64,000 nucleotides of DNA from IMG/VR virus record IMGVR_UViG_3300017991_000003, positions 129,019 through 193,018 of that record; one strand, 5' to 3'. The position numbers were made by a program, and so were the translations under genes. The first letter of the stretch is position 1. The number at the start of each line of letters is the position of its first letter. Below are positions 3,340 to 57,750 of this stretch, one piece after another. The notes under the pieces were generated by a model. That model did no database searches, was not told the origin of the DNA, and worked only from the letters and a program-made list of their open reading frames with translations. Source of the DNA: a virus.

Positions 3340-3985
3340 GGGTAGGTGGTGGGGTAGAGGTGATCGACATGAGACTTATGCCACAGTCCCTGGTCTAAAA
3401 AGAGAGCCCAACCCGAGGGGGTTGAGCTCTCTGGAAGTGCCCGGGCCCGCCCCTTTCATCGCAGTCCAACGAGTGGGACAAGGGGGATGCCGTAAGGGCC
3501 CGGGCTTGTAGGTGCGGAGCCGTGCCAGGATCACGGCCCCGCGGTGCTGTGGAAGTAGCTTGGCCCCCCAAGGAGGTGGGATGAGCCGCCGTAGCTACGA
3601 TGAGGCTCGCAGTCGGGCATGGTGCTACCCGGCCAACAGCGTGGCGATACGCCGAGACCCGGATCGCCGCCGGATAAGGTGGCCCCCGTCGTGACGTGCT
3701 CAGCTCACGCTCGAGGGGTTGGAAGACCTGCCATCTAGGATCAGTGGGATCCCCATCCCTTTGCACTCCTCGGAGAGTGTGCCGCTCCTGCGGCTGATGT
3801 GATGGCAGGTGGAAGACACCCACAGGTAGCAAGAACCGGCCTGGATGACCTCTTCGTTGCCCTAGGACCGGGGTCAGAGCCTTCCGGGCGCGCCTGTGGG
3901 TGATTGGGAAAGCCGAGCACGTCATCAACGCCGCTTGTGCGTCTGCTTGGTTGGTGGAGACGTGTGACGCTGCTCGGCTTTTGTA

Positions 3986-4072
3986 TGGTGCAGGAAGGGG
4001 GACTCGAACCCCCACGCCCGGGTGGGCACGTGGACCTAAACCACGGGCGTCTACCGATTCCGCCACTCCTGC
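3986..4072 (-). tRNA. tRNA-Leu (anticodon TAG), CCA encoded
   Basis: Reverse complement reads GCAGGAGTGGCGGAATCGGTAGACGCCCGTGGTTTAGGTCCACGTGCCCACCCGGGCGTGGGGGTTCGAGTCCCCCTTCCTGCACCA. 7-bp acceptor stem with one G-U pair, anticodon loop TTTAGGT, long variable arm, T-loop GGGGGTTCGAGTCCCCC. Confidence 0.85.
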
Positions 4073-4146: not shown

Positions 4147-4232
4147 TGGTGCGGGAGGAGGGACTCGAACCCTCACGCCCGAAGGCAGTGGATTTTGAAT
4201 CCACCGTGTCTACCGATTCCAACCACCCCCGC
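4147..4232 (-). tRNA. tRNA-Leu (anticodon CAA), CCA encoded
   Basis: Reverse complement reads GCGGGGGTGGTTGGAATCGGTAGACACGGTGGATTCAAAATCCACTGCCTTCGGGCGTGAGGGTTCGAGTCCCTCCTCCCGCACCA. Anticodon loop TTCAAAA, long variable arm, canonical T-loop. Confidence 0.85.
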
Positions 4233-6006: not shown

Positions 6007-6091
6007 GGCGTCTCCTGTTGGGTTGGGTGGGAACAGTGGAGGCTCGAAGCCTCGGGGTATCAGTAGACTCGTGACACAAACCCGATAAGGT

Positions 6092-6607: not shown

Positions 6608-7123
6608 ATGGAAACGACAACGACAGAGGCCCGCCCTGAGCTACAGCTTCGGCCGTTGGCCGGGCGGGTGATGATTCGAGTGGACGAGGCCCCCACGATG
6701 AGCGCAGGTACGCGAGGCCGTCAGGTCTATCTACCCGAGAGCGTCCAGAAGGAGGAGAAGGCGAACTACCGGTTCGGTACGGTCGTGGCCCTAGGGGACC
6801 CCGCGCTGCATCCGAAGACCGGCAGGCCGATCCCGTGGGCTGTGCATGTAGGCACCAAGGTCTGCTTCCAGTTCGGGGCTGACCTTACAGGTGAGCGAGA
6901 GCTCCAGTACACAGGAGGCGTGGCCCATGCGGTGTGCTTTGCTGAGGATCTGATTTACGCCATCGAGGATGATTATGAGATTCAGCCGACTCCCGTATGC
7001 CCCAACAGCGTAGGGGTTGCGCTACGCCGCGCTCTGATGAACGACGACTGGCTGACCGAGGAGCAGGTTGACACCCTGAGCCGGCGGCTCGCGTGCACGA
7101 TTGCCGGGGTTGTGCCCGCGTGA
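6608..7123 (+). CDS. GroES-like co-chaperonin (Cpn10 family) with C-terminal extension
   Basis: ATG at 6608; LRPLAGRVMIRVDEAPTMSAG...FGTVVALGDPA...PWAVHVGTKVCF...AEDLIYAIED aligns by eye with GroES (IRPLHDRVIVKR..TKSAGGIVL..GEVLAVGNG..VKVGDIVIF..ESDILAIVE). Confidence 0.6.
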   Translation: METTTTEARPELQLRPLAGRVMIRVDEAPTMSAGTRGRQVYLPESVQKEEKANYRFGTVVALGDPALHPKTGRPIPWAVHVGTKVCFQFGADLTGERELQYTGGVAHAVCFAEDLIYAIEDDYEIQPTPVCPNSVGVALRRALMNDDWLTEEQVDTLSRRLACTIAGVVPA

Positions 7124-7758
7124 GAATCGGCCGCACTTCCGATCTAGCGCCCTGGCCGCTCTTCATCGGCTTCTACACCCCGGAGTACGAGGAAGAGGCC
7201 GGGGAGCTTCGTAAGACCCTGGACGCGTTCGGGCTGCCACACGAGATCGAACCCGTCGAGTCCACGGGTAGCTGGTGGCTCAACACGCAGATCAAGGCTC
7301 AGATCATTTTGCTCAAGCTACGGGATCACCTGGGTCGACCGCTGGTCTACCTGGACTGCGATGCCCGAGTCAGGCAGGCTCCTACCTTGTTCCGCTCCCT
7401 GCATCACCAGTGCGACTTCGCGGCTCACTTCCGACCGGATCGACGATTCGAATGCGGTCGAGAGCTTTTGAGCGGGACGCTGTACTTCAGCGGCTCGCCG
7501 GCTTGCCAGGGCCTGGTACAGGCTTGGATCGATGAGAATGAGCGCCAGGCTGCGATCAAGAGTAGCAACAAGCTCCGCCTCATGGATCAGAGAACCTTGC
7601 AGACGGTCCTGGCTAAGGAGATCGAGGAGTACGGTCTTATGTTCACCGAGCTCCCTGCTACCTACGTTCAGATCTTCGACATCATGCGCGACGCCGGCGA
7701 CCCGGTGATCGAGCATCTCCAGGCCAGCCGCCGATTGAGGAACAAGGTTGGTCACTAG
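7120..7758 (+). CDS. putative glycosyltransferase (nucleotide-diphospho-sugar transferase-like, GT-A fold)
   Basis: GTG at 7120 overlaps the upstream TGA (alternative GTG at 7093). LVYLDCDARV and overall pattern resemble DxD-type sugar transferases; weak. Confidence 0.4.
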   Translation: MRIGRTSDLAPWPLFIGFYTPEYEEEAGELRKTLDAFGLPHEIEPVESTGSWWLNTQIKAQIILLKLRDHLGRPLVYLDCDARVRQAPTLFRSLHHQCDFAAHFRPDRRFECGRELLSGTLYFSGSPACQGLVQAWIDENERQAAIKSSNKLRLMDQRTLQTVLAKEIEEYGLMFTELPATYVQIFDIMRDAGDPVIEHLQASRRLRNKVGH

Positions 7759-7770
7759 ACTCATGACTCA

Positions 7771-8529
7771 ATGAAGCGACTGATCTACCAGGTCTGCGTT
7801 GGCCCGCCTGACCCGCTCTACGACAAGTGCACGCGCACTGTTGCGGCCTACTGCAAGCGCCTCGGCATCGCGTACATCAAGCAGACCGAGCCGGTCCTGA
7901 AGATCCGCCCGAACCCCGCTACGAGCGGGAGAAGCCAGAACGCTGTTGAACGACTAGGGTACCTGCCGATCTTCGAGAAGGAGAACGCACTCGCCCACCT
8001 TGGTGAGTTCGATCAGGTGGCCATTATCGACTCCGATATCTGGATCAGGGAGGAGGCACCCAACATCTTCGAGGAGCTCGAGGAGGGTGTTGACTTCATG
8101 GGGGTGGTCGAGCGAACCGCACCCATCACGCCGCAGTATGATCGGAAGCTCAAGAGCTACGCGCGCGGCCAGTACGGTCGTCCGGACTTCCCCTTCATGA
8201 ACATGGGGCTCATGCTCATGAACAAGAGCCTGCGCCGCTTCTGCCCCGAGCCTCCTCGGGAGTTTCTGGCGCGTCCGGAGTTCCAGGCCTTCGTGGATGG
8301 GCGGGGGGCCTACAAGTGGAGCACGGACCAGACCCTGCTCAACACCTGGTTGACCAGCGATCCCGACATGGTCGTGAAGCCTCTCGACTGGCGGTGGAAC
8401 GCCCTGTACGGGGCGCTGGTGCCCGGGTCGATAGAACAGGCCCACTTCGTTCACTTCTTCCTCAAGAACCACCTGGATAGCCAGGATCCCGACAAGCTCC
8501 TTCAGACACAAGGCCGCAAACGCGTTTAG
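7771..8529 (+). CDS. glycosyltransferase family 8-like protein
   Basis: AIIDSDIWI (DxD), FMNMGLMLMN, STDQTLLNTWL and HFVHFFLK match the order of conserved GT8 motifs. Confidence 0.55.
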   Translation: MKRLIYQVCVGPPDPLYDKCTRTVAAYCKRLGIAYIKQTEPVLKIRPNPATSGRSQNAVERLGYLPIFEKENALAHLGEFDQVAIIDSDIWIREEAPNIFEELEEGVDFMGVVERTAPITPQYDRKLKSYARGQYGRPDFPFMNMGLMLMNKSLRRFCPEPPREFLARPEFQAFVDGRGAYKWSTDQTLLNTWLTSDPDMVVKPLDWRWNALYGALVPGSIEQAHFVHFFLKNHLDSQDPDKLLQTQGRKRV

Positions 8530-8533
8530 CCCC

Positions 8534-9211
8534 ATGAGCAAAGTACCACCCCTATTCATTCACGTACCGAAGACCGGTGGCATGTCCGTGCACCATGGAC
8601 TAGGCCGCCTGATCCGAGAGACGCTGTCTCGAGACAAGCTGAAGTCTCTGGACTACGCGGCGACGATCGAGCAGCACATGCGCTCCAAGGGTGAGCCTAC
8701 TCCGGGGTACCGTCATGCCCGGTGGCGTGACGTCAAGCCGGGGTGGCGGGATAAGGGCCGCTGTTTCACGGTGCTGCGCAATCCGTGGTCCCGTGTGGTC
8801 AGTCGCTACCGGTTCGGACTCAATACCTGGGCGACGCGTCCCTACAACTACACGAACTTCGAGGAGTTTCTTGCGGAGCATGAGGAGTGGGGCCAAGAGC
8901 CGTACTACTGGCACCGCGCCGTGCGGGGCTGGTACCCTGCGGTGGATCACGTGACGGACGGCCAGGGCAACCTCAAGTGCGATGTTCTGCGTACGGAGCA
9001 CCTGGACGATGACATCTGGGCCTACTTCGGGAAGCGGCTACCTCCGCGCCGACGCAACGTCACGCGCGGCGATGCCGTGGACTACAAGACCTTCTACGAC
9101 GATCGAACCATCCAGCTGGTGGCAGACTGGTATGCCGAGGACATTGAGATGTTCGGCTTTGACTTCGACACGCCGGCGACGAAGAACCTGTGGGAGGGCC
9201 TAGGAGCATGA
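8534..9211 (+). CDS. sulfotransferase (PAPS-dependent, carbohydrate sulfotransferase-like)
   Basis: N-terminal LFIHVPKTGGMSV matches the 5'-phosphosulfate-binding motif (PKTGTT-like); TVLRNPWSRVVSRY matches the 3'-phosphate-binding motif (RDPxxRxxS). Confidence 0.65.
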   Translation: MSKVPPLFIHVPKTGGMSVHHGLGRLIRETLSRDKLKSLDYAATIEQHMRSKGEPTPGYRHARWRDVKPGWRDKGRCFTVLRNPWSRVVSRYRFGLNTWATRPYNYTNFEEFLAEHEEWGQEPYYWHRAVRGWYPAVDHVTDGQGNLKCDVLRTEHLDDDIWAYFGKRLPPRRRNVTRGDAVDYKTFYDDRTIQLVADWYAEDIEMFGFDFDTPATKNLWEGLGA

Positions 9212-9765
9212 TGGTTGGCAAGAACCAGGGCAGTCTCCTGGTTGTGCAGCAGATCCCAGAGAACAGCGTGGGTGCCGAGCTCGGCGTCTGGCGCGGGGAC
9301 ACATCAGCCCGCTTCCTAGCTAGCGGTAAGATCAAGCACTTGCACCTGGTGGATGCTTGGAGTCCCGACCCTTACTACGGCATCGAAGGCTACCGAGAGA
9401 AGTACGCCAAGCTGGTCGGATCGGGTGATCTCGACGCCTTTCGCGCCTACTACGACGCGGTCCTAGCCGGTGTCCGCAGGCGGTTTCAAGGCCAGCCCGT
9501 TACGATCCACCAAACCACTGTGCACGAGTTTCTGACTGAGCCCCCGGAGGATCTCGACTGGGTCTACGTGGACGCGAGTCACGAGTACCTCGACGTCCTT
9601 GATGATCTCGAGCGCTGTGCCCGTCACGTGGATCTGATCTTTGGGGATGACTACGGCAACAAGCCAGGGGTGGTTCGCGCTGTCGACGAGTTTGATCGGA
9701 CGCACCCCGAGTGGCACCTCCAGGTCCTGGGCAAGAACCAGTACCGCCTCGATAGGAAGGTCTGA
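9208..9765 (+). CDS. class I SAM-dependent methyltransferase (O-methyltransferase, Methyltransf_24-like)
   Basis: ATG at 9208 overlaps upstream TGA (ATGA). GAELGVWRGDTS glycine-rich motif, VDAW, DLDWVYVDASHEY and GDDY resemble the TylF/MycF-type fold. Confidence 0.55.
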   Translation: MMVGKNQGSLLVVQQIPENSVGAELGVWRGDTSARFLASGKIKHLHLVDAWSPDPYYGIEGYREKYAKLVGSGDLDAFRAYYDAVLAGVRRRFQGQPVTIHQTTVHEFLTEPPEDLDWVYVDASHEYLDVLDDLERCARHVDLIFGDDYGNKPGVVRAVDEFDRTHPEWHLQVLGKNQYRLDRKV

Positions 9766-10271
9766 TGCACCCATCAAGCAAGGCCAATATGAGGGAGGCC
9801 TGGGCACTCGTTCCCGACCCCCACCGCGTCGGGGACGTCCTTGATGTAGGCGGCGGTCGTGGCGGGGAATACCAGGAAATCTGGAAAGGGTGTGCTAGCT
9901 ACCGAACGGCTGACATTGCAGGTGACTGCGACCTCTTGATGCCTGGTGAGTACGAGATTCCACTTCCGGATGATTCGATCGATGTGGTGATTAGCGGCCA
10001 GACACTGGAGCATGTCCGCAACCCTTTCCGCCTCGTCACCGAGATGCGCCGGGTACTGAAGCCCGGTGGCTACGTGGTGATCATCGCCCCGTCCGCGGGC
10101 CCGGCCCATTTCAAGATCGACTGCTGGCGCTTCGTCCGGGATGCGTTCCGGGCCATCGCCCACGAGTGCGATCTAGAGGTTGTTGCCGATTGGATCTATA
10201 CCGGGGACTCTGGCCGAGGTCCTAACAAGCAGTGGAACGATCACACCTTCGTGGGGAGGAAGCCCGAGTGA
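9765..10271 (+). CDS. class I SAM-dependent methyltransferase (Methyltransf_11-like)
   Basis: VLDVGGGRG (motif I), DVVISGQTLEHV and LKPGGYVVI (motif III-like); 1-nt overlap with upstream stop. Confidence 0.6.
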   Translation: MHPSSKANMREAWALVPDPHRVGDVLDVGGGRGGEYQEIWKGCASYRTADIAGDCDLLMPGEYEIPLPDDSIDVVISGQTLEHVRNPFRLVTEMRRVLKPGGYVVIIAPSAGPAHFKIDCWRFVRDAFRAIAHECDLEVVADWIYTGDSGRGPNKQWNDHTFVGRKPE

Positions 10272-10969
10272 ATGCGTATGCCATCACGCTCTTCGGTAAC
10301 GAGACCAGCACCCAGAGCGTTGACAAGCTCTTTGAGTCCCATGTGGCGCTTGAGCAGCATTTCGATCTGATCCGCTTCCCGGCCATCACTCCTGACCAGA
10401 ACCAGGAGATCATGGCGGAGGAGCGCCTGGTGTGGACCTATCCCTGGGAAAACAACCGGCTGGATGGGATCACTGGCTTGAAGCTGCATCCCTACGCCAC
10501 ACGTGATCGGGGTGCGCGGATCGCCTGCTTCCTATCGCACTACCACCTCTGGAAGCTGGCCTGCGAGACTGGGGAGTGGGTGATGATCCTGGAGGACGAC
10601 ACGGTATTCACCAAGCACCTAGACCTAGACAGCCTGCCTTACCGTGAGTGGAGCGCCGTCGGCATCAACAACCCACTAGGGGCGACGCGTCGAGCGCCTG
10701 TGTTCCACGACAAGGTCGTGGCGCAGCGTCCGACTCCGATCATCGAGACCCCGTGGGTTGATGATGAAGTCAGGACCCCGCAGGGGCTGGCCGGCCACAG
10801 TGCCTACATGATCAGCCCTGAGCTGGCTAAGGACCTGATCCATCGAGCCCGTCATGCGGGTTGCTGGCCTAACGACGCATTGATGTGCAAGCAGCTGTAC
10901 CCTGGGAAGCTCGGGGTCACAACCGAGTTCTACACCCGAGTCCAGCAGACCCCGAGTACTCTGGCATGA
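10268..10969 (+). CDS. glycosyltransferase family 25-like protein
   Basis: GTG at 10268 (GTGA overlap). AYAITLFGNETS, IACFLSHYHLWKLA and VMILEDDTVF match GT25 (LPS/LOS glycosyltransferase) signature order. Confidence 0.55.
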   Translation: MNAYAITLFGNETSTQSVDKLFESHVALEQHFDLIRFPAITPDQNQEIMAEERLVWTYPWENNRLDGITGLKLHPYATRDRGARIACFLSHYHLWKLACETGEWVMILEDDTVFTKHLDLDSLPYREWSAVGINNPLGATRRAPVFHDKVVAQRPTPIIETPWVDDEVRTPQGLAGHSAYMISPELAKDLIHRARHAGCWPNDALMCKQLYPGKLGVTTEFYTRVQQTPSTLA

Positions 10970-11628
10970 AGGCGCGCGTCATCACCCTGATCCACAACAA
11001 GCGATCTGTTCAGGTAGCGAATCGGTGCATTGAGAGCGCTGCAAGGTTCGGCGTTGAGGTTGATATCTTCCCGGCCATCAGGGCGGCGGATAACCCCAAG
11101 GCCCTGATGTTCGAGCGGAAGTTCTCGATGAAGGGGTTTGAGGACAATGAGTACTCGCGTCTTGAGCCGTGCCTGGCTACGTTCCTCTCCCACTCTCGCC
11201 TATGGGAGCTTGCGGTGCTGCTAAAGGAGGCAGTCCTGATCCTCGAGCACGACGCTGTGTTCCAGGCTCCGCTCCCGGAGATGATCGAGGAGCGGGTGAA
11301 GATGCTCTGCAATCTGGGCAAACCGAGCTTCGGCTCCTTCAAGACCCCGAAAGAGGGGCTAGGCCCGTTCGTGTCCAAGCCCGGCGGCTATCTAGGCGGC
11401 GCCCACGCGTACCTGGTCCAGCCTGAGGCCGCTGAGGTGATGTTGGAGAAGGCCAAGACAGAGGCGGAGCCGGCCGATGTGTTCATCCAGAAGAAGCGCT
11501 TCCCCTGGATGACTGAGTACTACCCGTGGCCGGTGATCTGCGATGACTCCTTCTCCACCATCCAGAAGCCCGCAGGTTGCACGGCCAAGCACAACAAGGT
11601 CGAGATCATCGATCAGGATGAATCGTGA
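10966..11628 (+). CDS. glycosyltransferase family 25-like protein (second copy, divergent)
   Basis: ATG at 10966 (ATGA overlap). MKARVITLIHNKRS, ATFLSHSRLWELA and VLILEHDAVF mirror the GT25 pattern of the adjacent gene. Confidence 0.55.
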   Translation: MKARVITLIHNKRSVQVANRCIESAARFGVEVDIFPAIRAADNPKALMFERKFSMKGFEDNEYSRLEPCLATFLSHSRLWELAVLLKEAVLILEHDAVFQAPLPEMIEERVKMLCNLGKPSFGSFKTPKEGLGPFVSKPGGYLGGAHAYLVQPEAAEVMLEKAKTEAEPADVFIQKKRFPWMTEYYPWPVICDDSFSTIQKPAGCTAKHNKVEIIDQDES

Positions 11629-11861
11629 GGCTGCTAAGTCGCGCCTACTGGGCGGAGGTCGTCGAGTGCGACTACTGCCCTAATCCTGAAGAACCGCCCG
11701 CGCTTGTTTGTGGTGTCTGCGGCGATACGGGGAAAGCCCCGCGATGGCGTCGGGCTTGGCGCGATGTCTTCCGGTGTAGTGCTCTGGTGGGCCATCCTGA
11801 TAGGAGCCCTGCTTGTGGGGGCGTTGGCTCAGTAAAAACAACGCGTTGTTTTGTCGGGTAG
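11625..11861 (+). CDS. small Cys-rich protein, possible zinc ribbon
   Basis: GTG start overlapping upstream stop; CDYC...CGVC pair of CxxC motifs; last gene of the rightward operon. Confidence 0.35.
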   Translation: MRLLSRAYWAEVVECDYCPNPEEPPALVCGVCGDTGKAPRWRRAWRDVFRCSALVGHPDRSPACGGVGSVKTTRCFVG

Positions 11862-11921: not shown

Positions 11922-12179
11922 TCAGGGGCGGAGCCGCAGCCCCCGAGAGGTGACCAGCACCTTACGGTGCGGGACCTTGGGGAGCTTCGGCAGGGGCGGG
12001 AGGTCGACGTCGGTGTCGACGACCGCCTCCACCAGGGACTCGCCGTCCGCCCCGCTGATGTGGAGGCGGCGGTGCTCGCTGTTCTCGGTCACGTGGACCG
12101 AGCCCAGCGGGGTTTTGACCTTGGCGATGGTTCGCTCGGGGGCGATCCACGCCAAGATCTCGTCGAAGAACCCCATCAC
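11922..12179 (-). CDS. hypothetical protein (85 aa)
   Basis: Complete ORF, last gene of the leftward operon, coupled to the upstream gene by a 4-nt overlap. Confidence 0.45.
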   Translation of the reverse strand: MMGFFDEILAWIAPERTIAKVKTPLGSVHVTENSEHRRLHISGADGESLVEAVVDTDVDLPPLPKLPKVPHRKVLVTSRGLRLRP

Positions 12180-12358
12180 TTGCAGAGCAGCGGGTTCTTC
12201 CCCCGCTGCTTGATGCGGCGCACCCTCGCGCGGAGGGTGTGCTCGATGGAGAGGGGCTGCCCGCGGAGGCGGGAGGTGACGGCGATGTCTAGGCCGCGCA
12301 TGGGGGAGATCTTCCCCCGGCGGACCTTGAGCATCACCTGGCGACTGAGATTGCTCAT
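12176..12358 (-). CDS. small basic hypothetical protein (60 aa)
   Basis: Complete ORF; Arg/Lys-rich; 4-nt overlaps on both sides. Confidence 0.4.
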   Translation of the reverse strand: MSNLSRQVMLKVRRGKISPMRGLDIAVTSRLRGQPLSIEHTLRARVRRIKQRGKNPLLCK

Positions 12359-12555
12359 GTGGTCAGGTGGTCGGCGAAGGCCCAGGTGACGGCCTCCGCG
12401 AAGTTGGGGGTGAGGGTGGCGTAGCCCGTCTCTACGTGGGAGACGTGGGACTGACTGAACCCGATACGCGCAGCGAACTGCGCTTGGGACAGGCCCAGCC
12501 CCTTCCTGATCCAGCGGACCAGGCGGGGGCTGAGCTCGACGGTGGTGGCGATCAC
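12355..12555 (-). CDS. helix-turn-helix transcriptional regulator (XRE/Cro-CI family)
   Basis: LGLSQAQFAARIGFSQSHVSHVETG is a classic HTH_3 motif; 66 aa. Confidence 0.6.
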   Translation of the reverse strand: MIATTVELSPRLVRWIRKGLGLSQAQFAARIGFSQSHVSHVETGYATLTPNFAEAVTWAFADHLTT

Positions 12556-12839
12556 GACGCCTCCTCCGCGTCCGCCCAGGCTCGGGCGATCTGACGCATG
12601 GGAGCCCTCTGGGAGAGGGGCCGGACGGTCACGAGAGTGATGAGACGCTTGTGGCCGATCGTGATGAGCGGCTGCTCGTAGCCGCCCCGCGAGGCGGCCT
12701 CACGCACCTTCTTTTTGAAGGTGGTGAGCTGCGGGCTGTGAGCAGGCAGGCCGATCAGGGATTGACCTACTTCCTCGAACACCTCGCAGATGACCTCGGG
12801 CATGAGGGGCCGCAGCGGTTCTCGCATGGGGTTCTTCAT
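12552..12839 (-). CDS. hypothetical protein (95 aa)
   Basis: Internal ATG (MKNPMREPLRPLMPEVICEVFEE...) of track ORF 12552..13226; ATGA overlap with the stop of the upstream gene. The upstream 129 aa of the track ORF are Arg/His/Pro-rich read-through. Confidence 0.45.
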   Translation of the reverse strand: MKNPMREPLRPLMPEVICEVFEEVGQSLIGLPAHSPQLTTFKKKVREAASRGGYEQPLITIGHKRLITLVTVRPLSQRAPMRQIARAWADAEEAS

Positions 12840-13180
12840 CGGATCTCGAACCCCAGCTTTTCGGCGAGTTCGACCGTGGCGGTGCGGCTCGTGTGGTGGC
12901 GGGAGAACGCCACCTCGCCGGTGGCGAGGTCCACGTACCAGCGGTTGCCGCCGCCAATGCCGTAGATCGTCACGTGACCGGACTGGCCACGCATACGCAG
13001 GGCGTGGCCCCACGTGTATTGAGAGGACTCGGGGTCCTCGATGGAGTCCATCTGGCTCAGGAGCCAGGCGACCCCGTTTGCGTCGCGGCGCTCCTCGTCG
13101 TAGGTCGACGAGAAGCCCTCGACTTCTGCCATGTCGATGAGCGTCTCGGCGCTCATGATACGACCGGTCAGGGTGGTCAT
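12836..13180 (-). CDS. hypothetical protein (114 aa)
   Basis: Complete ORF, non-repetitive composition; first gene of the leftward operon, directly preceded by the 42-bp repeat. Confidence 0.5.
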   Translation of the reverse strand: MTTLTGRIMSAETLIDMAEVEGFSSTYDEERRDANGVAWLLSQMDSIEDPESSQYTWGHALRMRGQSGHVTIYGIGGGNRWYVDLATGEVAFSRHHTSRTATVELAEKLGFEIR

Positions 13181-13183
13181 GGT

Positions 13184-13225
13184 GTTGGGTGGTGAGGGTG
13201 TCTCCGGGTAGACATCCCCGGATCA
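13184..13225 (-). promoter_or_regulatory. 42-bp conserved upstream element, copy 1 (identical to 14851-14892)
   Basis: GTTGGGTGGTGAGGGTGTCTCCGGGTAGACATCCCCGGATCA, 3 nt upstream of the start codon at 13180. In gene sense it contains hairpin TCCGGG-gatgtcta-CCCGGA and a C-rich tract CACCCTCACCACCCAAC before ATG. Confidence 0.6.
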
Positions 13226-13339
13226 TTAGACTTATGCCCTAACCTCTCCCCCTCCTGGCGCTTTTGGTCCATACTGGGGGCACAACTTGACGCCCTTCGG
13301 GGCCGTCTCCCACGGATAACACAACTCCAGGAGAAGAGC

Positions 13340-14044
13340 ATGCTGCTCAACAACTTCAGCGTCCGCGTGCCTGAGGGACGCGAGCACCACCAGTACGTGG
13401 AGCTCCAGCACGACACCAAGTACAGCCTCGTCCTCGCCAACAAGAACACCGAGGACTGCGACGCCCGGGTAGAGATCGATGGGCAGGCTGTTGGGACCTG
13501 GCGGATCAAGGCCAAGTCCACGGTCCGGCTCGAGAGGCCGGTTGACTCGGAGGGTAGGTTTACCTTCTACAAACAAGGCACCGAGGAGGCGAGCAAGGCT
13601 CAGCTCGAGGCAGTCGGCGAGGACAAGCTCGGCCTGGTCTGCGTGTGGTTCACCCCGGCTAAGCGACAGCAGGTACCGCAGTGGATCAGTACCCCGCAGT
13701 GGGGCAGTCACTACCCGTCGCCTACGCCCCCGCCGATCCCCTTGGATTACCAAGTCGACTGCAACACGATCCAGACGGCTTTCTTCTGCGCGAGCTCTGC
13801 GGATATGCCTTCGATGAGCCAGAAGAGCGTGGGCTCGATCACGCGAGAGGCGCGCCTTATGTCTTCAGGAGGCACGGGCCTCTCGGGTAAGAGCACACAG
13901 CAGTTCGTTGAGGCTCAAGAGCTCGACCTAGACATGGATCGACAGACCTTCATCGCCCTGCGCCTCGTGTGCGTGGAGAAGGAGGAGTCGGACATCCGTC
14001 CTCTGGTGCAGCGAGCCACCCCTGTACCGCCGCCCCTGAAGTGA
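13340..14044 (+). CDS. hypothetical protein (234 aa), stand-alone rightward gene
   Basis: Complete ORF with GGAG 10 nt before ATG; flanked by leftward operons on both sides; Pro-rich segment PSPTPPPIPLDY. Confidence 0.5.
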   Translation: MLLNNFSVRVPEGREHHQYVELQHDTKYSLVLANKNTEDCDARVEIDGQAVGTWRIKAKSTVRLERPVDSEGRFTFYKQGTEEASKAQLEAVGEDKLGLVCVWFTPAKRQQVPQWISTPQWGSHYPSPTPPPIPLDYQVDCNTIQTAFFCASSADMPSMSQKSVGSITREARLMSSGGTGLSGKSTQQFVEAQELDLDMDRQTFIALRLVCVEKEESDIRPLVQRATPVPPPLK

Positions 14045-14058
14045 GGCAAAAAAGAAGG

Positions 14059-14081
14059 CTGGCACTGGCTCCCAGTGTCAG
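14059..14081 (-). repeat. inverted-repeat element copy E (CTGACACTGG-gag-CCAGTGCCA in minus orientation), terminator-like
   Basis: Plus strand reads ctggcactggctcccagtgtcag; on the minus strand it is followed by CCTTCTTTTTT (U-tract). Lies about 16 nt beyond the stop of gene 14097..14465 and shortly after the stop of plus gene 13340..14044. Confidence 0.5.
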
Positions 14082-14096
14082 TCTTCTTCTCGCGGC

Positions 14097-14465
14097 TCAC
14101 TCGGAGACGGCTCCAGCGGCTCGCATGGCCAGCGAGTGCAGGTAGTCGTACCGGTCCTTGAAGACATCGAAGGCCACAGTGCGGAGCTCGGCCTGGACCC
14201 AGGTGGCGTACTCGACCGGCGGTTCTTTCTGGATCAGCTCTTCAACGATCTCCCGAGGGAGGTAGGCGATGATCCAGTTCATGTCGTCCACGCGTCCCCC
14301 AGATCCCGGAGGTCCGAAGCCCAGCTGGTGCACAGCGTACTGAGCGCTTTCGATGAAGTCCTCGGGAACGTCGAAGTCGTCTCGCCGGCCAGCAGCGAGC
14401 ACCATGGCGGCCCAAGCCGCGTGGATACCTTGCCGGTACCCGCGCAGGTATTCGTCTTTAGTCAT
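14097..14465 (-). CDS. hypothetical protein (122 aa)
   Basis: Complete ORF; 8-nt overlap with upstream gene. Confidence 0.5.
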   Translation of the reverse strand: MTKDEYLRGYRQGIHAAWAAMVLAAGRRDDFDVPEDFIESAQYAVHQLGFGPPGSGGRVDDMNWIIAYLPREIVEELIQKEPPVEYATWVQAELRTVAFDVFKDRYDYLHSLAMRAAGAVSE

Positions 14466-14850
14466 GGTTAGGAGGGGTTTGGCAGGTCTGGTAGATGCGG
14501 GCCATCTGGTCGAGCGCCGTCAACCGGATGGTGATGATCTTGCGGGCCACGTTTGCGACGGTCGCGCCACTGCCCTGCCGCATCGACAGCTTGTGCGGCC
14601 GGGTCTGAAGGAGCTCAACGAGGTCCGTGTGAGCGAGGCGCTCGCGGAGGTCGGTGACGTACTCCGTGAGGAAGCCCTGAAGCTCCCCCGGCGGGTTGGC
14701 GGTCAGGACTGCCTTGGCCCTCGTGGGCGCGGTCCCGTCGAGCTGGCTCTGGAGGCGATCCCCGAAGGGAATCTGGGAGACCAGCTCGGCCCAGAGCCAG
14801 TCCCGGGCCAGGACCGCTGCCTGGCTGTAGATCTTGTCGGCGTGCTTCAT
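14458..14850 (-). CDS. hypothetical protein (130 aa)
   Basis: Complete ORF; start codon immediately adjacent to the second copy of the 42-bp element. Confidence 0.5.
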   Translation of the reverse strand: MKHADKIYSQAAVLARDWLWAELVSQIPFGDRLQSQLDGTAPTRAKAVLTANPPGELQGFLTEYVTDLRERLAHTDLVELLQTRPHKLSMRQGSGATVANVARKIITIRLTALDQMARIYQTCQTPPNHD

Positions 14851-14892
14851 GTTGGGTGGTGAGGGTGTCTCCGGGTAGACATCCCCGGATCA
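14851..14892 (-). promoter_or_regulatory. 42-bp conserved upstream element, copy 2
   Basis: Exact 42/42 match to 13184-13225, abutting the ATG at 14850. Similarity continues weakly for about 13 more nt (aaggactcatgac vs ttagacttatgcc). Confidence 0.6.
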
Positions 14893-15032
14893 AAGGACTC
14901 ATGACAGACCCAAGAGATGGGTTTGGCCCGCTAGTCCCTGGCACACATCCCGGCCTAGGCCCTAGACTTAGGACGAACCCTAAGGGCTCTTTCTGGGCCC
15001 CAAGTCCCCTTCTAACCGGATCCTGAGACACC

Positions 15033-16787: not shown

Positions 16788-19700
16788 ATGGCTGAGTTCA
16801 AGGACTGCCAGAGCCCGAGCCCCCTGACCGGGCGGATCGGCCCCGATCTGATCGAAGAGGTTGGCGGGGTCTCTCTGGCAGGTGTGTTGGCAGGCACGGA
16901 GACGCTGCCGGTTGGTGCAATCCCTGTCACAGCCCCGCTTTATGACAGTCCGAGCCCTACAGGTACGGCTATTGGACTGCGGTTGGATTCGAGCCTGACG
17001 GTTGATGCCCAGGGCCGGCTCAGTATTGCTGGAGCCCCATCGCCCGCGGCCCACGCCTCGAGCCACGAGCCTGGCGGGTCTGATCCGATCACCCCTGCTG
17101 CCTTTGACGGGCTTATCACCCCGCCGGTCGCCACGACGGTTGTCCTTGGCGGTGTCAAGGACGGTGACGGCGTCTCGATCGCCGGTGACGGCACCCTGAC
17201 CCTCGATCTGGCCGCCGCCAGTGGCCTCGAGATCAGCGGCGGGACCCTGAGACTGGCACTGGGTACCGGTGTCAGCTTCAGCGGCAACGATCTGGTCCTG
17301 GACGAGGCCACGGACTCCACGCTGGGCGGCATCATCGCCGGCACGGGTCTATCAGTCAGCTCGGGTACGGCGAGCCTCAACGCCCCCCAAGTCACGGGAG
17401 CCTCCCTAGCGGGCAGCACTCTGGTCTGGGATACCAGCCCGAGTGCCCAGAGTCCCAGCCCTGCTCTGAGGCTTCCGGCGAGCTTCACGTACACCAAGGC
17501 GATCCCGCAGTCGCAGCTGCCGACCGCGGCCTACGGCAGCCCGGGCAGCTCGAGCCCCAGCCCGCAGCTCGGCCTTGTCCGCATCTATGGCCCGAGCGAG
17601 GGCCTGACGCTTAGCGATGGGCTCCTGTCGCTGGCGACTCCGATCAGCACGGATCACCTACCCACCGCTACTGGTCTAGGTGGGCGAGGCATCGTCCGCG
17701 CGGGCCTACTTGACGGTACGGGCGTCTACGTCTCCAACAGTACGACCGGCCAGCTGGCGATCCTGATTGACGCCACGTCGGACACGTTGGCGTTGTCGTC
17801 GAGCGGGATCAAGGTCAAGTCCAATCGCTTCCTGGCGCTGACTGGCACCGGTAACCTCCCCAGCCCCGCGGCGAGCCCGAGCCCGGGGACTGACGGCTGG
17901 ATGACCGGGTCGGTTCGATTCACCAACGACCTGGGTGAGCCTGCGATCCGCACCGGTAACCAGCGGATCCGCTACGAGTTCGGGGCCAGCCCGTCTCCCG
18001 GGGCGATCCTGGCATCGGCTGATCTAAGCGATCTACTAACGTACCAGGAGATCAGCACACTCATCTCCCAGGCTGAGCTTGGTGTCGAGGTTTGGACTCC
18101 TGGGCGACCTGTGCAGGCAGAGCCGGGTACGAGCCTAGGTGCGTTGGCGGAGCTCTCGGCCGGGGATCGGTTCCTTACGAGCACGTCGTCCAACACCAAC
18201 CCCGGCGGTGACTGGAATGCGCACAACTGCGTGTTCGCGGTCTGGACGGAAACGGCTCCCGATACCTTTACCTGGGTCTATGAGACCCCCACGGTCAACA
18301 CCTGGTTCACAGACGACGTAACTGGGGACACGTGGGCTGTTGTTGTCGGCTCCCCCTCCCCGAAGTCGCCCTCACCGAACCCGTCGCGAGAGGCTTTCCG
18401 GTATCGCGCTCGTCAAGATGACACAGCATCGACGGCCCGAGCTGGTCGCGTGCGTGTCCCGACGACCAGTGGCCTCGTCATGGACGGCGAGGATATTCGG
18501 CTATCCCTCGCCTCGGACATCGGGGTCAGTACGGGCCTGCGTCTGATCACCCGAGCTCGCAACAACGCGCTAGCTCTCGATCTCAGCCGGTCCCAAGGGA
18601 TCTTGGAGCTCAACTCCGACGGGCGCCTTCAGGTTGCCGCGTCCTCGATCCAGGCCACGGAGATCGCGGACAACACCATCGTCCTCGACAACCTGGCCGC
18701 GGATCAGGTGACAGGCGGTACCAAAGACTTCATCGCCACGCAGTACGACGGGCTATCCGTCCGGCTGGTGGGGGACTCGGAAGACTTCCGCGTCACTGGG
18801 GCGCCTGTCAGCACGGCTACGACCATTCTGATCCACACCGAGGACGGTATCGGTGTGGCGGAGGAGTCGATCAACACTGACGCTCTCTCGGACGAGGCGG
18901 TTAGCTACAGCAAACTCCTGATGCCCACGGCCTCCGGTCTGGAGGACAACGGGCAGGACAAGGTCCGGGTCAAGCTCCAGACCCGCAGCGGCCTCGAGCG
19001 AACGGTGGATGGCCTGGCGGTCAACATCCATGACGTGGTGGACGATGCCACGATTGAGCTCGACACATCCACGGGCGGCTTGCGCGTCAAGACAGGTAGC
19101 CTGACGTCGTCGTACTTCGCGTCGGGCCTGGCGATCTCGGCCTCGGTCCTCACGCTGGGAGCCCCTATGCTCTCGTCGAGCGGGCTCCTGACCTTCTGCT
19201 ACCAGAGCCCTCTGGTCCTGACCGGCAGCCCCGGCTGCTTGACGATCGGCGAAGGCTTGATCAGCTCGCCGTATCTCGGCACCGGGTCGGTCAGCTACGC
19301 CAAGCTCAAGCTGGCGAGCCCCTCCGGCATCACGCAGACGGCCGGCGGTATCAAGGTCGACATCTCGACGGGTCTCGCCTTCAGCGGCAACCAGATCGTG
19401 GTCGACCAGGTGCCGGCAGACGCGATGGCACTGGATGCGGATTCGGCGTTGTACGCCGCTAGCCCGACCAGTCCGCTGACGCAGCTGGAGCTGAGCATCC
19501 GGGTCAGCAGCCCGTTCACGCAGACGGGTGGTACGCTGGATCTAGCGGACGAGGGTGTTCAGGTGAGTCACCTGGATCGCTCCAAGCTGCGCGGTAGCTT
19601 CCTGGCCAGCGGCCTCGAGGCCGGCCTAGGTACCCAGACCAGTCCCTTCGACTCTTGGGTCACGAGCCCGGCGTTCTACACCGGCTCGGACGCCCCGGGT

Positions 19701-20576
19701 ATGCGGGTGGCTACGCGGACGCGATCCGATCACGACTACCTGGATGCGGCGGGTCAGGGACAAGGCACGTTCGAGCCCTATAGCTTGACGCTGCTTCAAC
19801 TTGGTGGCACGCCCTCGGGCAGCGACTACCAGAACCGACTGGCCCCGACGCTCAACAGCATCGGTCTTCCGCACCTAGCCCTCGGCAACGAGACCCTGGC
19901 CCCCACGGACTCCGATCGGCTGCCGACTGGTTTCGGTAGCTACAAGGCGCTGGTCCAGAGCGGGAAGCTGCCCACGAGCCCGGTGACGAGCCGCGGCTGG
20001 GCAGTGGCTAACCTGTCGGAGAACATCCCAGCTGTCCGAGTCGGTCCGGGCCTCAGCATCACGGCTGCGGGCTTCGTGGTTCCGAGCGATGTCCAGGCGG
20101 ATCAGATCCTCCTGGGCACCACGTCTCGCGAGACCAGTCCGCGCGGGGTCTCGAGTCTTGCGCTTGTGCGTGACGGGGGATTGAGCAGCCCGGTCACGGA
20201 TGGGGCGCTGGCGCTCGGCTACGACGTATCGGACTTCGAGGTCACCTCGGCGCTTGGCCTTGGCCGACGTCAGGCGTACCAAGAGGAGTACACGGGCGCC
20301 TCGGTTCCCGCAGCGGCGAGCGGGTACTACACCTTCGCTCTGACGCTGGGGAGCTCGCAAGGCCTTGTGCCCGGCACGGTGTCGGTCCACGTCAACGGCC
20401 TACGTCTCGAAAGCCCCTTCTTCAGCTACACCAGCCCCTCGATCACCTCGAAGGAGGTGTACCTCAACGAGTCGGCAAGCCCTGGCCCCAACCTGGCCTA
20501 CACGTTGAGCCAGTCTACTAGCCCGGACGTTCTTGACCGGGTTGTCATTCGCTATCGAACCCGTCCGACCTCATGA
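16788..20576 (+). CDS. large fibrous structural protein (1262 aa) with recurring SPSP motifs
   Basis: Uninterrupted 3.8-kb ORF with Ser/Thr/Gly/Ala/Leu-rich fibre-like repeats (GTLTLDLAAASGLEISGGTLRLALGTG...) and at least eight S-P-S-P motifs with varying codons. Confidence 0.6.
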   Translation: MAEFKDCQSPSPLTGRIGPDLIEEVGGVSLAGVLAGTETLPVGAIPVTAPLYDSPSPTGTAIGLRLDSSLTVDAQGRLSIAGAPSPAAHASSHEPGGSDPITPAAFDGLITPPVATTVVLGGVKDGDGVSIAGDGTLTLDLAAASGLEISGGTLRLALGTGVSFSGNDLVLDEATDSTLGGIIAGTGLSVSSGTASLNAPQVTGASLAGSTLVWDTSPSAQSPSPALRLPASFTYTKAIPQSQLPTAAYGSPGSSSPSPQLGLVRIYGPSEGLTLSDGLLSLATPISTDHLPTATGLGGRGIVRAGLLDGTGVYVSNSTTGQLAILIDATSDTLALSSSGIKVKSNRFLALTGTGNLPSPAASPSPGTDGWMTGSVRFTNDLGEPAIRTGNQRIRYEFGASPSPGAILASADLSDLLTYQEISTLISQAELGVEVWTPGRPVQAEPGTSLGALAELSAGDRFLTSTSSNTNPGGDWNAHNCVFAVWTETAPDTFTWVYETPTVNTWFTDDVTGDTWAVVVGSPSPKSPSPNPSREAFRYRARQDDTASTARAGRVRVPTTSGLVMDGEDIRLSLASDIGVSTGLRLITRARNNALALDLSRSQGILELNSDGRLQVAASSIQATEIADNTIVLDNLAADQVTGGTKDFIATQYDGLSVRLVGDSEDFRVTGAPVSTATTILIHTEDGIGVAEESINTDALSDEAVSYSKLLMPTASGLEDNGQDKVRVKLQTRSGLERTVDGLAVNIHDVVDDATIELDTSTGGLRVKTGSLTSSYFASGLAISASVLTLGAPMLSSSGLLTFCYQSPLVLTGSPGCLTIGEGLISSPYLGTGSVSYAKLKLASPSGITQTAGGIKVDISTGLAFSGNQIVVDQVPADAMALDADSALYAASPTSPLTQLELSIRVSSPFTQTGGTLDLADEGVQVSHLDRSKLRGSFLASGLEAGLGTQTSPFDSWVTSPAFYTGSDAPGMRVATRTRSDHDYLDAAGQGQGTFEPYSLTLLQLGGTPSGSDYQNRLAPTLNSIGLPHLALGNETLAPTDSDRLPTGFGSYKALVQSGKLPTSPVTSRGWAVANLSENIPAVRVGPGLSITAAGFVVPSDVQADQILLGTTSRETSPRGVSSLALVRDGGLSSPVTDGALALGYDVSDFEVTSALGLGRRQAYQEEYTGASVPAAASGYYTFALTLGSSQGLVPGTVSVHVNGLRLESPFFSYTSPSITSKEVYLNESASPGPNLAYTLSQSTSPDVLDRVVIRYRTRPTS

Positions 20577-21112: not shown

Positions 21113-21131
21113 CCTCTAACCCCACAGACTC

Positions 21132-21674
21132 ATGACGACCTCTATTCGAAAGCGGGTGAGCTGGTTCGGTGACCGGACCACGCGCATCCCCAAGCATCGC
21201 GGGCTTCACCCGAGCGGTACTCCGACGGAGATGCCTGAAGATGATGCCAACGACCTGATCCGAGACTATCCCAGTCACCTCGTGGTGGCTGACCCGATCA
21301 CGTTGGTTGCGGAGCACATCGGTGAAGAGGTGGACCGGAAGGAGTTCTACGACGCTGGATACCGCTCCTACGGTACGCAGCCTGTGAAGTGGAAAGGCCC
21401 TGCGGTGACCTCGGTCACGCCGACGGCCAGCCCGGCTACGTCGCCTACGATCGTGTGGGACGCGATGCCCGCTCGGTTTGCTCCTCAGAGCTATCAGCTG
21501 TACCGAGGTACCGCGGCAGCGCCGAAAACGACGCTGGTGGGCTCGACTACCCTCCTGACGCTCAGCGAGGCCCCGCCGGCTCAAGGCACCTACATCTACA
21601 GCGTGACCTACACGGATCCCCACGGGTATGAGAGCGACGTCGGTACGTCGGTGTCTCACTACTCGTCTCCGTGA
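21132..21674 (+). CDS. hypothetical protein (180 aa), paralog B
   Basis: KRVSWFGDR, DLIRD..LVVADPITLVAEHIG, KWKGP, YQLYRGT and TYIYSVTYTDPHGYESD; clear tandem duplicate of 20573..21112. Confidence 0.5.
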   Translation: MTTSIRKRVSWFGDRTTRIPKHRGLHPSGTPTEMPEDDANDLIRDYPSHLVVADPITLVAEHIGEEVDRKEFYDAGYRSYGTQPVKWKGPAVTSVTPTASPATSPTIVWDAMPARFAPQSYQLYRGTAAAPKTTLVGSTTLLTLSEAPPAQGTYIYSVTYTDPHGYESDVGTSVSHYSSP

Positions 21675-30739: not shown

Positions 30740-30801
30740 TGTTCGGTCCGTGGTAAGAGAAACAGGCGTCAGTGGACTTATGCCACGGACGCCTGCTCTA
30801 T

Positions 30802-30824
30802 CTGGCACTGGTACCTAGTGTCAG
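30802..30824 (-). repeat. inverted-repeat element copy F (CTGACACTAG-gta-CCAGTGCCA in minus orientation)
   Basis: Plus strand ctggcactggtacctagtgtcag; the TGA stop codon of the HTH gene 30821..31021 is the TGA inside the element. Confidence 0.45.
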
Positions 30825-31021
30825 CCTTCGTACAGCTTCTGGACCGATGTCCCCAGCGCCTTGGCGATCTTGCTCATGGTCGGCCACTTAGGGATGAAGC
30901 GGCTGTGCTCGGCAGCGTTGATGTACTGACGCTCTTTACCTACACGTCGACCCAGCTCAGCTTGGCTCATATTTTTAGCCTCGCGTAGCTGGGCGATTCG
31001 ATCTCCGGGGGAGTCACTCAT
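30821..31021 (-). CDS. helix-turn-helix transcriptional regulator (XRE/Cro-CI family)
   Basis: MSQAELGRRVGKERQYINAAEHSRFIPKWPTMSKIAKALG is a typical HTH_3 motif; 66 aa. Confidence 0.6.
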   Translation of the reverse strand: MSDSPGDRIAQLREAKNMSQAELGRRVGKERQYINAAEHSRFIPKWPTMSKIAKALGTSVQKLYEG

Positions 31022-31883: not shown

Positions 31884-31941
31884 GGGCTGGTCTTAGGAGG
31901 AAGGCCTGGCTCGCAGTGCAAGATAGACACCGCTACGAGGC

Positions 31942-57481: not shown

Positions 57482-57750
57482 TGGCCCGTCCTGCTGTAAC
57501 CCTCTACTACCAGAGCAACTGCGGTTTCTGCCCAGATGCGATTGAGGGGTGTGCGGGCCTCGTAGAAGCCCTGGGTGCTCCTATCCTTATTCGTAAGCCG
57601 ACTTTGCAGGAAATGAAGTCCGGGCAGATCCCTGGCTATCCCGCCCTGTTCGTGCCGGCTGGGGTCCGAGGCCTCACCCGCCCCTATCTCCTGGTAGGTG
57701 CGGCCCTCCCCGACCTCCTTGACCAGTTGCTGAGCTCCACGGATGGCTGA
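57481..57750 (+). CDS. glutaredoxin/thioredoxin-fold protein (89 aa)
   Basis: VTLYYQSNCGFCPDAIEG has a CxxC active-site motif at the position expected after beta-strand 1; 1-nt overlap upstream and 8-nt overlap downstream. Confidence 0.5.
   Translation: MARPAVTLYYQSNCGFCPDAIEGCAGLVEALGAPILIRKPTLQEMKSGQIPGYPALFVPAGVRGLTRPYLLVGAALPDLLDQLLSSTDG

Follow-up and report, generated by a model that had tools for sequence, protein, structure and literature searches.

This analysis concerns an exact repeat of 42 nucleotides (nt) in a 64,000-nt stretch of viral DNA, here called the window (positions 129,019 to 193,018 of IMG/VR record IMGVR_UViG_3300017991_000003). The two copies of the repeat probably, though far from certainly, belong to a modular cassette of promoter and leader that heads small gene units of early or middle type, that is, non-structural ones. 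On the best reading of the sequence, the cassette consists of a lineage-specific promoter unlike the sigma-70 consensus, followed by an RNA hairpin close to the 5' end and by a leader that lacks structure. At least 11 such cassettes are found in this metagenomic phage of approximately 193 kilobases (kb), and another six in its sole detectable relative. The element is real and conserved. Elements of this kind are ordinary in large phages, and the sequence of this one is new.

The repeat was first noticed in a preliminary description of the window, as a 42-base-pair (bp) sequence upstream of the leftward start codons at 13180 and 14850. Both the repeat and its placement are borne out. The 42-mer has two exact occurrences, at 13184-13225 and 14851-14892, and shuffled sequences lead one to expect none. 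The exact identity is in fact one nucleotide longer, and similarity reaches 54 nt at 93% (family D13). Both copies end at leftward start codons, the second directly at its ATG and the first with 3 nt in between. In the sense of the messenger RNA (mRNA), copy 2 thus ends in CCACCCAAC-ATG and copy 1 in CCACCCAAC-ACC-ATG. GC content at third codon positions selects the frames 12836-13180 and 14458-14850 on the minus strand as coding, and independent gene calls on the source contigs concur.

In what follows, the cassettes of the window phage are called c1 to c11 and those of the relative r1 to r6. The two exact copies belong to c1 and c2, which are direct repeats 1,667 bp apart and flank ORFan genes. 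The first protein behind c2, of 130 amino acids (aa), finds a sole match among 5.8 billion proteins, namely itself. The genes behind the hairpin copies c1, c2, and c6 are mutually unrelated. Because of this, the repeat is regarded as a regulatory module that ends at the start codon, and not as part of a duplicated gene. The complete identity of c1 and c2, in a region rich in ORFans, is best explained by a recent duplication or gene conversion of the cassette.

At its end distal to the ATG, the repeat runs into a recurring box of 16 nt. Read in the direction of the leftward genes, this box is G-K-C-A-Y-R-A-G-T-C-Y-N-N-T-G-A. It is followed by a hairpin in about half of the cassettes, and then by a G-poor leader of (ACC)n-like sequence that continues to the ATG. 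The core of the box, RGACTYATGMC, has six exact matches in the window, all on the plus strand, compared with 0.32 expected. With a weight matrix, the instances of the box score 26-31 and everything else in the 84 kb scanned scores below 12. A scan for further copies has thereby carried the family far beyond the two operons first described. Five of the cassettes (c6, c8, c9, c10, and c11) lie outside the window, in flanks of the same phage that were reached via the genes at its edges.

The placement of the box is regular. Of the 17 boxes in the two phages, 16 face a small non-structural unit and lie 29-92 nt before the ATG of its first gene. The blocks of structural genes (15-25 kb and 32-72 kb) are free of cassettes in the weight-matrix scan. 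Directly before c3, c6, and r1 there is a terminator made of a hairpin and a T-run, and the terminators of c6 and r1 are alike; upstream sequence is not common to cassettes other than these three. The cassette c3, at 3340-3382, corresponds to a degenerate third version of the repeat that had been proposed before the gene starting at 3339. The box and a CCACC leader are indeed present there, but the hairpin is missing. The features of the cassettes and of the two units headed by c1 and c2 are collected in Table 1.

Table 1. Cassette parts, exact repeat copies, and genes of the c1 and c2 units. Positions are those of the window; cassettes outside it are given by their sequence.
Feature	Position	Strand	Remarks
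Exact repeat copy 1 (43 nt)	13183..13225	-	spans TGA of the box, hairpin, and G-poor leader
Exact repeat copy 2 (43 nt)	14850..14892	-	
c1 box GGCATAAGTCTAATGA	13223..13238	-	promoter-like; downstream start 13180
c1 hairpin UCCGGG-GAUGUCUA-CCCGGA	13203..13222	-	
c1 leader GACACCCUCACCACCCAACACC	13181..13202	-	one G; predicted unpaired; without Shine-Dalgarno
c1 unit, first gene (114 aa)	12836..13180	-	without family match
c1 unit, following genes (95, 66, 60, and 85 aa)		-	66-aa protein is helix-turn-helix (HTH); unit ends at 11922
XRE-type HTH gene within c1 unit	12355..12555	-	HTH_3, E 5e-10
c2 box GTCATGAGTCCTTTGA	14890..14905	-	downstream start 14850
c2 hairpin	14870..14889	-	same as c1 hairpin
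c2 leader GACACCCUCACCACCCAAC	14851..14869	-	abuts ATG
c2 unit, first gene (130 aa)	14458..14850	-	
c2 unit, second gene (122 aa)	14097-14465	-	
c3 box GGCATAAGTCTCATGT	3367..3382	-	just downstream of intrinsic terminator; without hairpin
c3 leader CACCUCUACCCCACCACCUACCC		-	up to ATG at 3339
c4 box GGCATAAGTCCACTGA	30769..30784	-	29 nt upstream of ATG at 30739; without hairpin
c5 box GTCACGAGTCTACTGA	6060..6075	-	downstream start 6006
c5 hairpin GAGGCU-UCG-AGCCUC	6039..6053	-	followed by CCCACCCAACCCAAC and ATG at 6006
c7 box GTCATGAGTCTAGTGA	7752..7767	-	anomalous; no downstream start; antisense into rightward gene 7120-7758
c6 GGCATGTGTTTAGTGA-TCCGGAG-ATGTCTA-CTCCGGA-GACACCATCACCACCACCCACCCAG-ATG			left of window
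r1 GGCATGTGTTTAGTGA-GCCGGGG-ATCTGTA-CCTCGGC-CACCACCACCC-ATG			related phage
r2 GGCACGAGTTCAGTGA			related phage; followed by the hairpin of r1
r3 GGCATGAGTCCTATGA-(G)AACCGG-AACCTGTA-CCGGC(TC)-CACCACCACCACCAC...			related phage

On the opposite strand, the box becomes RGACTYATGAC and itself holds an ATG. Gene calls place the start codon of a divergent or rightward gene at this ATG in two cases: at 21132 (site 21126-21136) and at L100:6982 (site 6967-6982; L100 lies left of the window). Together with the antisense copy c7, these starts may reflect overlapping divergent signals or antisense transcription.

Evidence for conservation comes from a single related phage. Searches with megablast and tblastn against 50,697 phage records give no relative, only weak matches to ThyX and to an exonuclease. 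Protein-anchored scans of IMG/VR with the 130-aa and 114-aa proteins give nothing. DNA pattern scans of viral and metagenome contigs give only chance matches and one unrelated soil repeat. The relative was found via the exonuclease of a neighbouring unit, which has a homologue with 63% identity on a contig of 85.6 kb (NODE_76 of ENA ERZ28668946). This contig carries the same box, hairpin, and CACCACC leader.

The soil repeat, TAAACGGTATTTTTGCCCCGGTGTCTCCGGGAGCGCACCCCCGGAACCCC, matches the search pattern by chance. It is found at loci L021, L051, and L053 and at about 20 other soil metagenome loci. On several contigs it forms inverted copies approximately 1.9 kb apart, and it looks like the ends of an insertion sequence.

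The cassettes of the two phages can be compared at matching positions. For instance, r1 is the positional equivalent of c6, since both stand beside the gene for an 803- or 806-aa protein, and their boxes are identical at 16 of 16 positions. The gene of c6 has 31% identity to the gene behind r2, the cassette in tandem beside r1. Likewise, the genes of c10 and r4 have 29% identity. Cassettes at matching positions are approximately 80-100% identical, compared with 29-31% for the proteins that they precede. Judged by these identities, the constraint on the cassettes is far stronger than that on the proteins encoded behind them.

The hairpin described earlier, TCCGGG-N8-CCCGGA, is present in both exact copies, with a folding energy of about -12 kcal/mol. 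Among the 15 cassettes that were folded (all but c11 and r6), nine have a hairpin. The cassettes c3, c4, c9, and c11 have none, although c11 is outside the folded set. When folding begins at the G of the TGA, the first base of the stem is at +3 in c1, c2, c6, c10, r1, r2, and r3. If this G is the start of the transcript, two unpaired nucleotides precede the stem in these seven cassettes. In c5 and r4, hairpins of unrelated sequence are found at a similar position.

The stems differ in sequence and length. The outermost pair is U-A in c1/c2 and in c6, and G-C in r1/r2. The fifth pair is G-C in c1/c2 and in c6, and G·U in r1/r2, while the sixth is G-C, A-U, and G-C in the same order. The stem has 6 bp in c1/c2 and 7 bp in both c6 and r1/r2, and the arms are spaced by 15 or 16 nt, a shift of 1 nt between c1 and c6. 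Through these exchanges among c1, c6, r1, and r3 (U-A/G-C, G-C/A-U, and G-C/G·U), pairing has been kept in evolution. The pairs were taken from single folds and from RNAalifold, since MAFFT misaligned the 3' arms. RNAalifold recovers six pairs, one of which is changed on both sides. Compensatory changes, a G·U pair, and variable arm spacing favour an RNA structure over a palindrome bound by a protein. The hairpin thus appears to be selected for pairing of the sense strand, that is, as an RNA hairpin.

The same features bear on a different model, in which the inverted repeat or the box is a DNA operator. It would be bound by an XRE-type HTH protein (encoded at 12355-12555 or 30821-31021), would co-regulate the units, and would overlap the promoter or sit just downstream of it. 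The inverted repeat would indeed occupy +3 to +22 of the putative start, the classical position for a repressor, but its arm spacing is off by 1 bp between c1 and c6. Its half-sites change symmetrically and include a G·T opposition in r1/r2, so that neither half-site nor spacing is constant. The hairpins of c5, c10, and r4 are unrelated to it, and c3, c4, c9, and c11 lack one. The box holds a direct repeat with 10-nt spacing (nTRAGTC...nTGAnnC) but has no dyad symmetry. Two further observations suit an operator: two small XRE HTH genes lie within units headed by the box, and c8 and r5 lie downstream of a sigma-70-like site, where an operator is expected. On balance, we consider an operator unlikely. 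The preliminary description had proposed a shared control element that co-regulates operons including an HTH regulator. A cis-regulatory element at the head of the units stands, and an HTH gene is indeed part of the c1 unit, but their link is one of co-location and a role as operator for the HTH protein is disfavoured.

Other functions of the hairpin were also considered. It is followed by GACACCC or CACCACC, with no U-run, and it is absent from the list of a terminator scan, so it is not recognized as an intrinsic terminator or attenuator. In a search of Rfam 15, only two transfer RNAs (tRNAs) reach the gathering score, and nothing is found on the cassettes at E values up to 5. A short upstream open reading frame (ORF) could begin at an AUG in the hairpin loop. 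Its stop overlaps the main AUG in c1 and c2, and in c6 it is in frame. This candidate was rejected, since the loop AUG is missing in the relative (r1-r3). A second inverted repeat, UGUCU/AGACA, was rejected as a pseudoknot or switch; it has no connecting loop, which makes it sterically implausible, and it is not conserved in the relative.

The preferred model takes the box as a core promoter. CAYRAG would occupy -12 to -7 and the invariant G -14, and the invariant T-G-A that comes six bases later would mark the start site in the form Y(-1)R(+1)R(+2). A Y-R-R start element and the geometry between the -10 element and the start have been described across bacteria (PMC12641261), and the TGA, the putative start, fits this element. 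The transcript would then begin 2 nt before a hairpin of 6-7 bp that is kept by covariation of base pairs. A stem-loop so close to the 5' end may shield that end and sequester the G residues of the leader. Protection of bacterial mRNAs by 5'-terminal stem-loops has been reviewed (PMC3997798). Beyond the hairpin, the G-poor (ACC)n-like tract would stay single-stranded up to the AUG and would allow the start to be selected with no need of a Shine-Dalgarno sequence, which most genes of this phage also lack.

An upstream module lends the box further promoter-like character. The sequence GGTACCT is found 49-50 nt before the TGA in c6, c10, r1, and r2, and the intervening sequence differs. Promoters typically show such a constant spacing.

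The box is not a sigma-70 promoter in the usual sense. Compared with an extended -10 element, G at -14 and A at -11 are invariant, but T at -15 occurs in only about half of the boxes, -7 is almost always G, and -12 is C. A sigma-70 scan finds nothing at any cassette. Since the box differs from the sigma-70 consensus and a -35 element is absent, its reader would be a phage-directed factor or an unusual host sigma factor. Together with the sigma-70-like sites described below, this suggests a possible cascade in which promoters of host type would act first and promoters of box type next, the latter read with a phage factor.

A canonical sigma-70-like site, TTGACA-17-TATCTT, is found at 31920-31948 on the minus strand. 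It lies upstream of a unit that encodes a 285-aa protein and an XRE-HTH protein (31883 to 30821). Unlike the box-type cassettes, it is a candidate for an early promoter of host type. The possibility that the box is instead a rightward -10 element, TAGACT, was rejected, because in c3, c4, and c5 it would face gene ends or tRNAs.

Several observations weigh against a promoter-leader cassette. About half of the cassettes do without a hairpin. The covariation comes from a small sample, namely four distinct sequences in two genomes. The stability of the hairpin is not far beyond that of shuffled controls: z-scores range from -0.4 to -2.9 depending on fragment and copy, which is ordinary for the GC content. 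For c1/c2, dinucleotide shuffles of longer fragments give -0.4 to -0.7, and the 45 nt that follow the TGA give -1.7 to -2.1. At -7 the box does not have the T that sigma-70 promoters conserve, and it has no conserved -35 element either. Pfam and PHROGs revealed neither a sigma factor nor an RNA polymerase among the genes examined. The 285-, 641-, and 803-aa proteins have no sequence match in the PDB, and the 803-aa protein was rejected as a phage RNA polymerase, since its model resembles polysaccharide lyases and glycoside hydrolases. One copy, c7, is the only one that does not face the first gene of a unit and runs antisense into a gene. Finally, c8 and r5 are located downstream of a promoter-like TTGACA-N17 site and upstream of a conserved, terminator-like leader hairpin. 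At these two places, the box might act as an operator or as an RNA site and not as a promoter. Together with c7, these two copies fit the promoter model least well.

In both phages, the exonuclease/HD operon has a leader of the same design. A TTGACA-N17 site is followed by the box and then by a hairpin-plus-T-run terminator just before the ATG (L093:19520-19670, minus strand, and L094:9590-9770, plus strand). It looks like an attenuator or antitermination arrangement.

The position of c8 and r5, in a leader downstream of a promoter-like site, is also what one would expect if the box acted in RNA. In such a model, the A/U-rich box is a site within longer transcripts that is cut or bound by a ribonuclease or RNA-binding protein of the host or phage. 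The hairpin would then be the protective 5' end of a processed mRNA, or a translational operator. The box is the only A/T-rich stretch of a leader with 63% GC, and a hairpin follows at a fixed distance. However, a box of 16 nt and approximately 22 bits is far more specific than known sites of the RNase E type. No obvious terminator stands ahead of c4, c5, and c11, each of which has genes of the same strand on either side, but c3, c6, and r1 come right after strong terminators, so that little read-through RNA would be available to be processed. The fixed gap to the GGTACCT module in four cassettes is a property of DNA, as in promoters, and Rfam yields no ribozyme or other RNA family in the region. 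It therefore seems improbable that the box is a place where RNA is processed or bound.

Cassettes may also spread by recombination. The tandem cassettes r1 and r2 flank an extra ORF of 35 codons in the relative that is missing from the window phage. This pair and the identity of c1 and c2 fit shuffling mediated by cassettes, through recent duplication or gene conversion. In its extreme form, this model holds that the repeats are only remnants or active sites of gene shuffling, with no regulatory role. The direct repeats c1 and c2 around ORFans, the ORF between r1 and r2, and the similar behaviour of promoter-early stem-loop (PeSL) cassettes in T4-like phages (PMC2839356, PMC4122927) are in keeping with it. 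Yet the cassettes keep a strict orientation and position relative to start codons, the box is conserved across phages whose proteins are approximately 30-60% identical, and the covariation of the stem indicates selection on function. A module for recombination alone is thus very improbable. Since PeSLs are themselves functional promoters, recombination adds to the promoter-leader model and does not replace it.

The leader raises the question of how translation starts. Between the hairpin and the ATG, the tract is G-poor, rich in CACCACC or ACCCAAC, and predicted to be unpaired. All five copies of ACCCAAC on the minus strand are at most 16 nt from a start codon. The C-rich tract without a Shine-Dalgarno sequence had been noted previously as a possible translational control element. 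The tract is real, but it is not a special control. Shine-Dalgarno-like 4-mers precede 18 of 66 genes, compared with 17% in random windows, and C/A-rich, G-poor sequence precedes most start codons, including those of large structural genes. Because the property is genome-wide, these operons are not exceptional in lacking a Shine-Dalgarno sequence. Cellular contigs of planctomycete type have similar sequence upstream of their start codons. Purine-poor starts without a Shine-Dalgarno sequence are thus a property of the whole genome and probably of the host as well. Unstructured start regions are known to permit initiation without a Shine-Dalgarno sequence (PMC3121790).

A more ambitious version of the model can be put forward tentatively, and we regard it as doubtful. 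Here the box is recognized by a phage-encoded transcription factor, sigma-like protein, or polymerase, in a lineage of giant phages that has not been described before and whose hosts are probably Planctomycetota. In this version, the (ACC)n leader would serve as a dedicated start signal independent of Shine-Dalgarno pairing. If this were true, the box and leader would be the first defined expression signals for viruses of Planctomycetota.

The source is a metagenomic phage, and the longest contig that encodes its proteins measures 193 kb. Positions 4458-24850 of the window (20,393 nt compared) are identical to contig k141_2423138 (174.7 kb) of ENA ERZ27256773, and the window sequence differs by one base from a contig of JGI 3300018080. 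The source samples also include SRR6963352. Nearly all proteins of the phage lack a match in Pfam or PHROGs, and one matches a T4-type baseplate wedge family.

The host is probably a planctomycete, as judged from the 803-aa protein encoded beside c6, left of the window (L100:13367-15778). This protein has no sequence match in Pfam or the PDB. Its distant homologues, which are on cellular and not phage contigs, are almost confined to Planctomycetota, with at least 75 of 79 loci in assemblies of this phylum (L106-L184). The model of the protein has a beta-sandwich and a helical domain and resembles PL26 lyases and GH38 enzymes, which suggests a polysaccharide-degrading function.

Two tRNA-Leu genes with anticodons TAG and CAA and an encoded CCA are located at 3986-4072 and 4147-4232 on the minus strand. 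Judging from their D-arms, we take them to be of bacterial type. An archaeal host, with the box read as a TATA box, was rejected in view of the bacterial-type tRNA-Leu with encoded CCA and the hairpin-plus-T-run terminators.

Some other features of the window deserve mention. Approximately 550 nt (3440-3985), bounded by the tRNA-Leu genes on one side and by a strong intrinsic terminator of the minus strand (3400-3435) on the other, have no convincing ORF and no Rfam match, and could hold a new structured RNA. On the plus strand, 7120-11861 is a cluster for sugar and methyl modification in an otherwise ORFan early region. It encodes a sulfotransferase-like protein, two methyltransferases, and two proteins like glycosyltransferase 25. 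A gp6-like baseplate wedge gene (31942-34029) stands beside giant ORFs. These are found at 34036-44256, 16788-20576, 52142-56359, and 57743-62281 and encode 3406, 1262, 1405, and 1512 aa, respectively. The latter three have no match in Pfam or PHROGs. Since the giant ORFs adjoin the wedge gene, the virion module appears highly novel.

A second repeat family consists of a 21-nt quasi-palindrome, TG(G/A)CACT-N7-AGTG(T/C)CA, with 13 copies. Eleven are in the window, at 6527, 14060, 17254, 30803, 34883, 35306, 36503, 38066, 44306, 51550, and 62286, and two are at L100:8905 and L100:15867. Twelve of the 13 copies have the same asymmetry, with GGCAC in one arm and GACAC in the other, and the copy at L100:8905 is symmetric. 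In the sense of the local gene, 11 of the 12 asymmetric copies read UGACACU...AGUGCCA. Some copies are located at gene ends or in 5' leaders, and five are within the ORFs of 1262 and 3406 aa. The related phage has none in the 20 kb that were examined. The element is no simple terminator and could be a recognition site for a protein or an RNA.

Repeated promoter-leader cassettes are a familiar means by which large phages express and shuffle small early genes, and the principle is ordinary. The value of this example comes from its setting. The phage and its relative consist almost wholly of proteins without a known family, and the host is uncultured, so the cassette offers a handle on the timing of gene expression. 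The conserved non-sigma-70 box can be used as bait for the factor that reads it, and as a marker for further members of the lineage in metagenomes. The leaders provide a clean natural case of start regions without a Shine-Dalgarno sequence in a GC-rich genome.

Several known systems resemble the cassette in part. The class III promoters of T7 with the gene 10 leader, and the late promoters of T4, are compact, repeated boxes without a -35 element, where transcripts start by a stable hairpin. The cassette likewise has a short conserved box without a -35 element that is repeated genome-wide, with a hairpin beside the putative start. However, the sequence of the box is unrelated, the timing appears to be early or middle and not late, and Pfam and PHROGs reveal no phage polymerase or sigma factor.

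Hairpin promoters of the N4 type have a stem of 5-7 bp and a loop of 3 nt, and are recognized on the template strand by the virion RNA polymerase. The loops of the cassettes have 7-8 nt, and the G·U pair of r1/r2 would be an A·C mismatch on the template strand, so that the cassettes do not match this type.

The PeSLs mentioned above are a closer parallel. They too are short composites (approximately 50-60 nt) of a conserved promoter and a stem-loop, with many copies before small ORFans in variable regions of large myovirus genomes (PMC2839356, PMC4122927). Like PeSLs, the 11 and six cassettes of the two phages flank ORFans and are tied to gene gain and loss between relatives. PeSLs differ in having a near-consensus sigma-70 promoter (TTGACA-N17-TATAAT), which the box does not resemble. 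Their stem-loop is a terminator located upstream, whereas the hairpin of the cassette is downstream, in the presumed transcript. In addition, the cassette continues as a conserved leader to the ATG.

Another parallel is provided by the SAS and ESAS elements of Cluster K mycobacteriophages (PMC3203893). SAS is likewise an asymmetric repeat of one orientation that is located just upstream of the starts of some non-structural genes. The two systems agree in architecture only: an imperfect inverted repeat with a variable spacer precedes about half of the sites, and the genes served are exclusively non-structural. The role of SAS and ESAS, like that of the cassette, is putative. The 13-bp SAS, GGGATAGGAGCCC, holds a Shine-Dalgarno-like GGAG, whereas the leaders described here are of CACCACC or ACCCAAC type without GGAG. 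There is no sequence similarity, and the best-conserved part of the cassette is its additional 16-nt box upstream. Because the sequence-defined features of PeSL and SAS are lacking, the cassette is placed outside both families.

For the hairpin itself, the nearest counterparts are the 5' stem-loop stabilisers of ompA and papA (PMC3997798). There, as in the putative transcripts of the cassette, a hairpin approximately 2 nt from the 5' end is followed by an unstructured start region.

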